Shown here one piece after another: positions 55,888 through 56,024 of a stretch of DNA of 64,000 bases. The stretch is from NCBI RefSeq assembly GCF_053078305.1, contig NZ_CP166879.1, one strand, 5' to 3'. The notes below the pieces were generated by a model. That model had not been told where the DNA came from, did not search any database, and saw only the letters and a program-made list of their open reading frames with translations. Position 1 is the stretch's first letter; the number at the start of each line of letters is the position of its first letter. Position numbers and translations under genes: made by a program.

Positions 55888-55926
55888 TTAGTATCTCCAT
55901 ACAATCTATTAATCATTTAAATGATA

Positions 55927-55954
55927 GGTCTAATCATGATTTTGGGTCTAATCA
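55927..55954. promoter_or_regulatory. Direct repeat GGTCTAATCA x2 (18-bp spacing) in the pgrR/ycjY divergent promoter region; candidate LysR-type operator
   Basis: Two exact 10-bp copies at 55927-55936 and 55945-55954, followed by TTAATGATCAAT. Confidence 0.35.
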
Positions 55955-56024
55955 ACTTAATGATCAATATCTATAGTGATATAACCAACCGTTAAAACGA
56001 ACCAACAACTCCATGAGGAACGGA

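Follow-up and report, generated by a model that had tools for sequence, protein, structure and literature searches.

Which bases of the short spacer between the divergent genes pgrR and ycjY are likely to be read by the LysR-type regulator PgrR is the question raised by this locus. A sequence-only reading of the 64-kb stretch of DNA analysed (the window) had singled out two direct repeats in the spacer as a plausible operator for control of the hydrolase operon by PgrR. Binding of PgrR to the spacer, control of ycjY-ymjDC-mpaA and autoregulation are already in the literature and in RegulonDB/EcoCyc. The regulon published for E. coli K-12 (Shimada, Yamazaki and Ishihama 2013; RegulonDB/EcoCyc) involves the same gene and the same spacer, the operon in the window differing because it keeps an intact second hydrolase gene, lost in K-12.

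A PgrR gSELEX peak maps to ycjY/ycjZ, and the curated PgrR (YcjZ) regulon includes ycjG, ycjXF-tyrR and ycjY-ymjDC-mpaA (PMC5934670); repression of ycjY-ymjDC-mpaA by PgrR is recorded in RegulonDB. The DAP-seq fold enrichment of PgrR at the pgrR promoter is 5632, that of LacI at lacZYA being 4413 for comparison (PMC10505187 supplement). Negative autoregulation of pgrR was found by PPTP-seq and confirmed in a tunable-TF strain, the authors noting agreement with the published binding site, and knockdown of pgrR increased pgrR promoter activity by log2 0.97 (PMC10505187). The ycjY promoter rose by log2 0.60, 0.28 and 0.34 (1.2-1.5-fold) upon pgrR knockdown, values under the threshold of that study, and more upon knockdown of ulaR (log2 2.19 in LB; UlaR DAP-seq fold 57.5) and hns (log2 0.88; PMC10505187 supplement).

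Repeats and dyads in the pgrR/ycjY spacer

The features of the locus are as follows.

54988-55887, minus strand: pgrR (ycjZ), ORF for a LysR-type transcriptional regulator of 299 aa, annotated as PgrR in K-12 and O157
55888-56024: pgrR/ycjY divergent control region (the spacer), 137 nt, 31% G+C
55912-55925: dyad 1, ATCAT-TTAA-ATGAT (ATCATTTAAATGAT), a perfect 14-bp palindrome, proposed high-affinity regulatory/recognition site (RS)
55921-55950, minus strand: candidate pgrR promoter predicted by a consensus scan, -35 TAGACC (55950-45), 18-nt spacer, -10 TATCAT (55926-21)
55927-55936, plus strand: repeat copy 1, GGTCTAATCA
55932-41: palindrome AATCATGATT, including part of the copy-1 TAATCA
55945-55954, plus strand: repeat copy 2, GGTCTAATCA, with core TCTAATC at 55947-53
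55951-55964: dyad 3, ATCAA-CTTA-ATGAT (ATCAACTTAATGAT), AS1-like, beginning inside copy 2 and taking in TTAATGATCAAT
55972-55977, plus strand: candidate ycjY -10, TATAGT, with a putative +1 near 55984
56015-19, plus strand: Shine-Dalgarno GAGGA of ycjY, whose ATG (56025-27) matches the start annotated in K-12
56025-59551, plus strand: target operon
56025-56945, plus strand: ycjY
56945-57874, plus strand: second alpha/beta hydrolase gene
57895-58535, plus strand: SDR/NAD(P)-binding gene, frameshifted near 58271
58823-59551, plus strand: mpaA

The limits of the spacer are set by the start codons of the two genes, CAT at 55885-87 for pgrR and the annotated ATG at 56025 for ycjY. It corresponds to MG1655 NC_000913.3 1391854-1391990, K-12 being identical over the whole core. 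The 299-aa product of pgrR carries the Pfam domains PF00126 HTH_1 (1.6e-21) and PF03466 LysR_substrate (9.5e-35), and the two genes lie on opposite strands; the earlier identification of pgrR as a LysR-type regulator gene divergent from ycjY is thus confirmed.

The description of the repeats was also accurate. The decamer GGTCTAATCA starts at 55927 and again at 55945, TTAATGATCAAT is found at 55957-55968, 3' of both copies, and the two exact copies in the spacer are the only ones in the window. They are spaced 18 bp start to start, or about 1.7 helical turns. Of 20,000 shuffles of the 137-nt spacer that preserved dinucleotides, 1.4% contained an exact direct repeat of 10 nt or longer, and 0.5% one with the two units within 30 bp. 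Across the window, isolated exact repeats of 10 nt or more with units 10-40 bp apart number four, in addition to a tandem array in coding sequence. The decamer repeat is therefore, taken alone, only mildly unusual, and draws its weight from conservation. Tandem copies of a 30-bp unit that encodes PVPPDDGGDT were noticed at 24906-25200, near the N-terminus of a 1964-aa ORF (19673-25567, minus strand) that looks autotransporter-like by eye.

A known RNA family, or a stable RNA/DNA hairpin, was rejected as an explanation of the region, as a search of Rfam with 55600-56300 gave no match at E<=1, and RNA folds were not significantly more stable than those of shuffled sequences (z-scores -1.56 and -0.11).

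The hexamer TAATCA is found three times in the spacer, at 55910, 55931 and 55949. That at 55910 leads into the left arm of ATCATTTAAATGAT, the second into the palindrome AATCATGATT, the third into the left arm of ATCAACTTAATGAT. Because of the location of the hexamers at 55931 and 55949, the decamers can be described as GGTC followed by the second and third TAATCA, respectively. Dyads of the ATCA-N6-TGAT type are found at 55912-25 and 55951-64. Dyad 1 extends with its flanks to ATTAATCATTTAAATGATA (55908-26), and features symmetric T and A residues 10 nt apart (T-N10-A, ATC-N8-GAT), as opposed to the textbook T-N11-A; dyad 1 is therefore a variant of the textbook LTTR box. The centres of the other two sites are 21 and 39 bp from the centre of dyad 1, and the two are 18 bp apart, the latter interval falling between whole helical turns. 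LysR-type dimers read dyads rather than direct repeats (PMC11495319). It is improbable that the decamers make up the primary operator, and the main recognition element of PgrR is more likely the palindrome neighbouring the repeats, of which the sequence-only reading made no mention. Nor did it mention the palindrome AATCATGATT or the dyad ATCAACTTAATGAT, which are likewise stronger features than the repeats.

The window counts 10 ATCA-N6-TGAT sequences where shuffles predict 1.4, an excess that may reflect frequent ATC and GAT codons and was not taken as a regulon signal. A sequence of this pattern, ATCAACGCATTGAT (51818-51831), resides in the ynaJ/ynaI divergent spacer. Neither ATCAY-N4-RTGAT nor TCTAATC was found in the tpx/ycjG spacer (60495-60612), another reported PgrR target; the search of reported targets covered the window, and the ycjX upstream region lies outside it.

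Conservation from Escherichia to alphaproteobacterial plasmids

The window is E. coli DNA: among 5,426 complete genomes of the species, 5,242 match the 2.1 kb around the spacer with 95-99.5% identity, the best being O157-like. The 76-nt core surrounding the decamers is 100% identical in 4472/5220 E. coli genomes, and K-12 and Escherichia sp. E1V33 both carry the decamers unaltered. Scanning genomes for PgrR located syntenic pgrR/ycjY pairs in Citrobacter, Kluyvera, Pseudocitrobacter, Shimwellia, Serratia and metagenome bins. E. coli and the other genera are 81-93% identical over a 70-nt core (55908-55977), whereas identity drops to 32-43% at four-fold degenerate sites of pgrR, and to about 12-63% in the spacer flanks.

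Conservation is not evenly distributed within the core. The enterobacterial alignment shows little or no change in dyad 1, TCTAATCA, CTTAAT and CTATAGT, dyad 1 changing at one spacer base only, CTATAGT at none in 12 enterobacterial sequences. GAGGAA and ATGATG are kept in all enterobacterial orthologues. At dyad 3 a perfect ATCAT-CTTA-ATGAT is found in the metagenome bin L009 and, as judged by eye from the enterobacterial alignment, in Shimwellia and Pseudocitrobacter. The two repeat copies are identical in Escherichia only, copy 1 being replaced in most other Enterobacterales by AGTCCAATCA, which matches copy 2 at 8/10 positions. Overall, identity between the copies is 10/10 in Escherichia, 7-8/10 in other Enterobacterales and 1-6/10 in alphaproteobacterial plasmids. 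The AATCA of copy 1 is kept in all enterobacterial sequences except Serratia PL17 (TATCG), and copy 1 must therefore be under some constraint in this group.

The best 120 protein homologues of PgrR are all at least 87% identical, and thus include no mid-distance orthologues; these came from a tblastn search of plasmids. Twelve orthologous loci outside Escherichia were compared. In eleven PgrR is at least 61% identical, and the twelfth (57%) has a different spacer. On plasmids of Klebsiella, Rhizobium, Agrobacterium and Kozakia, PgrR identity ranges from 88% down to 62%, and the spacers align to that of E. coli over the core free of gaps. Three elements are deeply conserved, the dyad ATCAY-N4-RTGAT, the heptamer TCTAATC and a -10-like TAnnnT hexamer (TATAGT in E. 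coli). Dyad 1 is symmetric at 5/5 positions in nine out of ten aligned sequences, and its arms covary, from T..A to C..G, in Agrobacterium and Kozakia. TCTAATC is found exactly 28.5 bp from the dyad-1 centre in 8/10 sequences, down to Rhizobium, Agrobacterium fabrum and Kozakia. The TAnnnT hexamer follows TCTAATC at a fixed distance of 18 nt, TATAGT having TAGATT and TACCAT as counterparts in the alphaproteobacterial plasmids, and the distance from the dyad-1 centre to the start of the -10 is 53.5 bp both in E. coli and R. tropici. In the same plasmids copy 1 reads GGCCTAATAA, AGGCCAAGCG or GGGCCATGAC, and is unrecognisable in Agrobacterium and Kozakia; dyad 3 is degenerate, its left part TCTAATC alone persisting. 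At least nine lineages are mutually saturated at four-fold sites, so that common descent is not enough to account for the footprint.

The PgrR proteins whose spacers keep the motif, those of E. coli, Klebsiella, Rhizobium and A. fabrum, have one and the same recognition helix, QSALSQIVRR, while homologues with an altered helix (L010, Novosphingobium) carry different palindromes. That palindromes differ in distant cassettes suggests co-evolution of operator and recognition helix. In L010, which encodes a regulator 57% identical to PgrR, the palindrome TTGTTAATTAACAA is found in the equivalent position (2860-3000 of that locus). A second RBS-like palindrome, CTATCATGGAATGATAG, lies about 31 bp from the first in A. 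pusense (L021, 1418-1500). The homologue of Novosphingobium (55% identical), which is not flanked by ycjY, was dropped as a paralogue.

Conservation in related genomes, on which the sequence-only reading had made its proposal depend, holds for copy 2, and does not for copy 1. Published binding of PgrR to the spacer bears out the choice of the region, and not the notion that the direct repeats themselves are the operator. The earlier reading is thus partly supported: region and regulator were right, the main element was missed, and two non-equivalent sequences were treated as a pair. As judged from sequence, the decamers may rather correspond to the promoter-distal half-sites, plus four flanking bases, of two weaker sites, and would not be equivalent operators. 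We propose that the copy-1 TAATCA (55931-36) is the left half of a weak, AS2-like middle site, and that copy 2 is a promoter-proximal PgrR contact, lying over the -35 positions of both divergent promoters; this double role would explain the strong conservation of copy 2.

Candidate divergent promoters and a proposed three-site target

A table of constitutive RpoD promoters lists TAGACC-18-TATCAT for pgrR and ATGATA-19-TCTAAT for ycjY (PMC3946193), and the pgrR pair is reproduced by the consensus scan. The predicted pgrR -35 TAGACC is the complement of copy 2, and the predicted -10 TATCAT overlaps the right arm of dyad 1. SELEX peaks of the RpoD, RpoH and RpoE holoenzymes fall in the spacer (RpoE intensity 17.2), and both pgrR and ycjY have been called RpoE-dependent by the authors (PMC5493296). 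A sigma-E promoter was rejected by inspection (-10 taken as TCTRA/TCAAA), since no GGAACTT-like -35 is found about 16 nt upstream of either GTCTAA; the 7-mers located 16 nt upstream of the two are CTATTAA and ATAGGTC.

The pgrR/ycjY locus is absent from the supplements on Cappable-seq and SMRT-Cappable-seq, and no start site in the Kim 2012 table falls inside the spacer. The start attributed to ycjY in that table lies within pgrR, 667 nt upstream. The table also reports a start site 23 nt upstream of mpaA (window position ~59173; MG1655 U00096.2 1388705, minus strand), and mpaA may therefore have in K-12 its own promoter, independent of that of ycjY.

In a published model of LysR-type regulators a highly symmetric anchor site near -65 is accompanied by two less symmetric sites over the -35/-10 region; a dimer slides between the two weaker sites when the ligand binds, and autoregulation is negative (PMC11495319). 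The reading that we favour, with moderate confidence, is that the spacer is a composite PgrR operator-promoter, built as a classic three-site LysR-type target over back-to-back promoters. With TATAGT as the -10, the centre of dyad 1 is at about -65.5, that of the middle site at about -44.5, and that of dyad 3 at about -26.5.

Dyad 1 (ATCAT-N4-ATGAT, 55912-25) would be the anchor, some 65 bp upstream of the putative ycjY start. It lies directly over the -10/start region of the predicted pgrR promoter, and a PgrR dimer bound there would repress pgrR. The second dimer of a tetramer would occupy the weaker, less symmetric downstream sites, either the middle site, having as left half the copy-1 TAATCA, or the proximal site ATCAA-N4-ATGAT (55951-64), having as left half the copy-2 TAATCA. 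The proximal site would cover the -35 and the spacer of the ycjY promoter, along with the pgrR -35 TAGACC, and its occupancy would keep ycjY, the second hydrolase, the SDR gene and mpaA at a low level. In line with the sliding-dimer model, a ligand would bring the dimer closer to the middle site, resulting in relief of repression or activation. Such a layout would explain both autorepression and the repression of ycjY in the uninduced state. The bases contacted by PgrR, the points of transcription initiation, the sliding, the role of a ligand and the assignment of sub-sites are all inferred; the boundaries of sub-sites and the -65 geometry hinge on TATAGT being the -10 of ycjY. Several observations speak against this reading. 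Dyad 1 is of the T-N10-A type, the two weak sites are separated by 18 bp, and pgrR knockdown has a small effect on the ycjY promoter. Dyad 3 is degenerate in the alphaproteobacterial plasmids, whose sequences are fitted as well or better by an alternative register, ATTW-N6-TAAT (55939-52). TCTAATC, finally, could owe its conservation to a promoter role and not to contact with PgrR.

The arrangement may be compared with that of BenM/CatM at benA/catB in Acinetobacter baylyi, where a three-site operator is made up by ATAC-N7-GTAT and one-base variants thereof at sites 1, 2 and 3. Both systems feature divergent regulator and target genes and negative autoregulation. The PgrR spacer would further share a highly symmetric anchor near -65 and two more sites which repeat one half-site and overlap the -35/-10 region, the repeated half-site being here the TAATCA found as left half three times. 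Site centres are 21 and 39 bp apart in the PgrR spacer, 21 and 42 bp in BenM/CatM. The dyads differ, ATCAY-N4-RTGAT (T-N10-A, 14 bp) in one case, ATAC-N7-GTAT (T-N11-A, 15 bp) in the other.

Copy 1 may be without any function, and the perfect match of the two copies in Escherichia a lineage accident, due to drift or to a small conversion or duplication, in what is simply a linker. The decay of the identity with distance, from 10/10 to 7-8/10 to 1-6/10, fits such an origin, as does the occurrence of about four isolated 10-nt near repeats in the 64 kb of the window. Yet the copy-1 segment is far better kept in Enterobacterales than neutral sites, which are 32-43% identical at four-fold positions, and we regard the accident as unlikely.

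We think it quite unlikely that the decamers are conserved just as promoter elements for RNA polymerase, TCTAAT being the ycjY -10, or TAGACC the pgrR -35. Published hexamers are available for both genes (PMC3946193), that for pgrR being retrieved by the scan as well, holoenzymes select the spacer in vitro (PMC5493296), and GTCTAA resembles a sigma-E -10. However, TCTAAT lacks the A at -10 position 2, and the -35 proposed for it is 20 nt away in this sequence; a GGAACTT-like -35 is missing, as said, from the expected place; and a better -10, the invariant TATAGT, is located 18 nt downstream of TCTAATC. The two roles are moreover compatible, as weak sites of LysR-type regulators normally overlap the -35 (PMC11495319), and a promoter role of TCTAAT/TAGACC probably coexists with PgrR contact.

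That the two GGTCTAATCA repeats are equivalent recognition units, each bound by one PgrR protomer or dimer, appears distinctly improbable. The exact 10/10 match (P ~0.014 in shuffles), the location of both decamers inside the conserved core, and their constancy in K-12, Escherichia sp. E1V33 and the 4472 E. coli genomes sharing the 76-nt core are in its favour, and R. tropici has GGCCTAAT and CGTCTAAT at the same 18-bp spacing. Against it, LysR-type dimers bind dyads (PMC11495319), an 18-bp spacing places the copies on different helical faces, and the most conserved and most symmetric element, dyad 1, lies outside the decamers. In addition, copy 1 matches copy 2 at 8/10 positions in most Enterobacterales and at 4-6/10 in alphaproteobacterial plasmids, though the recognition helix is unchanged. 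Short direct repeats of identical sequence are likewise found in the PhoB/OmpR boxes of winged-helix response regulators, in promoter regions, and in plasmid iterons. In those systems repeats lie a whole number of helical turns apart (10-11 or 21-22 bp) and are bound by head-to-tail tandem protomers. The PgrR spacer differs in the 18-bp spacing, the adjoining LysR-type regulator and the deep conservation of one copy only. A tandem direct-repeat operator of the PhoB/OmpR or iteron type was rejected on account of the 18-bp spacing and the divergence of copy 1, to 8/10-1/10 outside Escherichia.

It is very improbable that the AT-rich repeats are targets of another DNA-binding protein (IHF, H-NS, UlaR) instead of PgrR: AATCAACTTAATG (55950-62) is, by inspection, one mismatch from the IHF consensus WATCAANNNNTTR, and the ycjY promoter responds to knockdown of hns and ulaR, but the IHF-like match is not conserved (ATCATC in other genera), the PgrR DAP-seq signal is about 100 times that of UlaR, and the motif covaries with the PgrR recognition helix in orthologous cassettes on unrelated plasmids.

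A cassette shared with plasmids

The divergent order of pgrR and ycjY is conserved in all 14 loci examined in which both genes are present, plasmids included. A cassette made up by the regulator, two alpha/beta hydrolases and the SDR is found on an IncF plasmid of Klebsiella variicola and on Rhizobium tropici plasmids; in the DNA examined, plasmids of A. fabrum, A. pusense and Kozakia carry, as a minimum, the regulator together with two hydrolases (loci L017, L018, L019, L020 and L021). The plasmids are conjugative or mobilizable in Klebsiella variicola, Rhizobium tropici and Kozakia, non-mobilizable in Agrobacterium, and the cassette is also chromosomal in several Enterobacterales. In Escherichia the module lies between mppA and mpaA-ycjG. 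Among the loci examined, mppA, mpaA and ycjG are next to it in Escherichia only, and the plasmid loci are devoid of murein-peptide genes.

Genes downstream of ycjY decay differently across E. coli lineages. The SDR gene of the window is frameshifted by a 1-nt deletion near 58271, the second hydrolase being intact. O157:H7 PNUSAE147325 shows the reverse, with a frameshift in the second hydrolase and an intact SDR gene, and in K-12 ymjD/ymjC are the remnants of the two genes.

The control region is ordinary and largely known, and the significance of the analysis is slight beyond bookkeeping. What is added is a base-level map, featuring the dyad ATCAY-N4-RTGAT, the fixed TCTAATC and the -10 TATAGT, kept from Escherichia to alphaproteobacterial plasmids. 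The map could guide footprinting, the design of reporters, and the search for the ligand and substrate of the YcjY-type hydrolase module.

A further possibility, which we put forward tentatively and with some doubt, is that PgrR and its operator belong to a self-contained, horizontally mobile four-gene module, along with two S15/dienelactone-hydrolase-like alpha/beta hydrolases and the SDR, in which PgrR might act as a classical ligand-dependent activator/repressor of a small-molecule pathway. An activator/repressor is suggested by the poor -35, the anchor at about -65, and the derepression upon knockdown, merely 1.2-1.5-fold. Since the module would be mobile, and has no murein-peptide genes in the loci examined outside Escherichia, control of the hydrolase/SDR pathway may be the primary role of PgrR. 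If this holds true, the label of peptidoglycan recycling repressor would describe a secondary, Escherichia-specific wiring.
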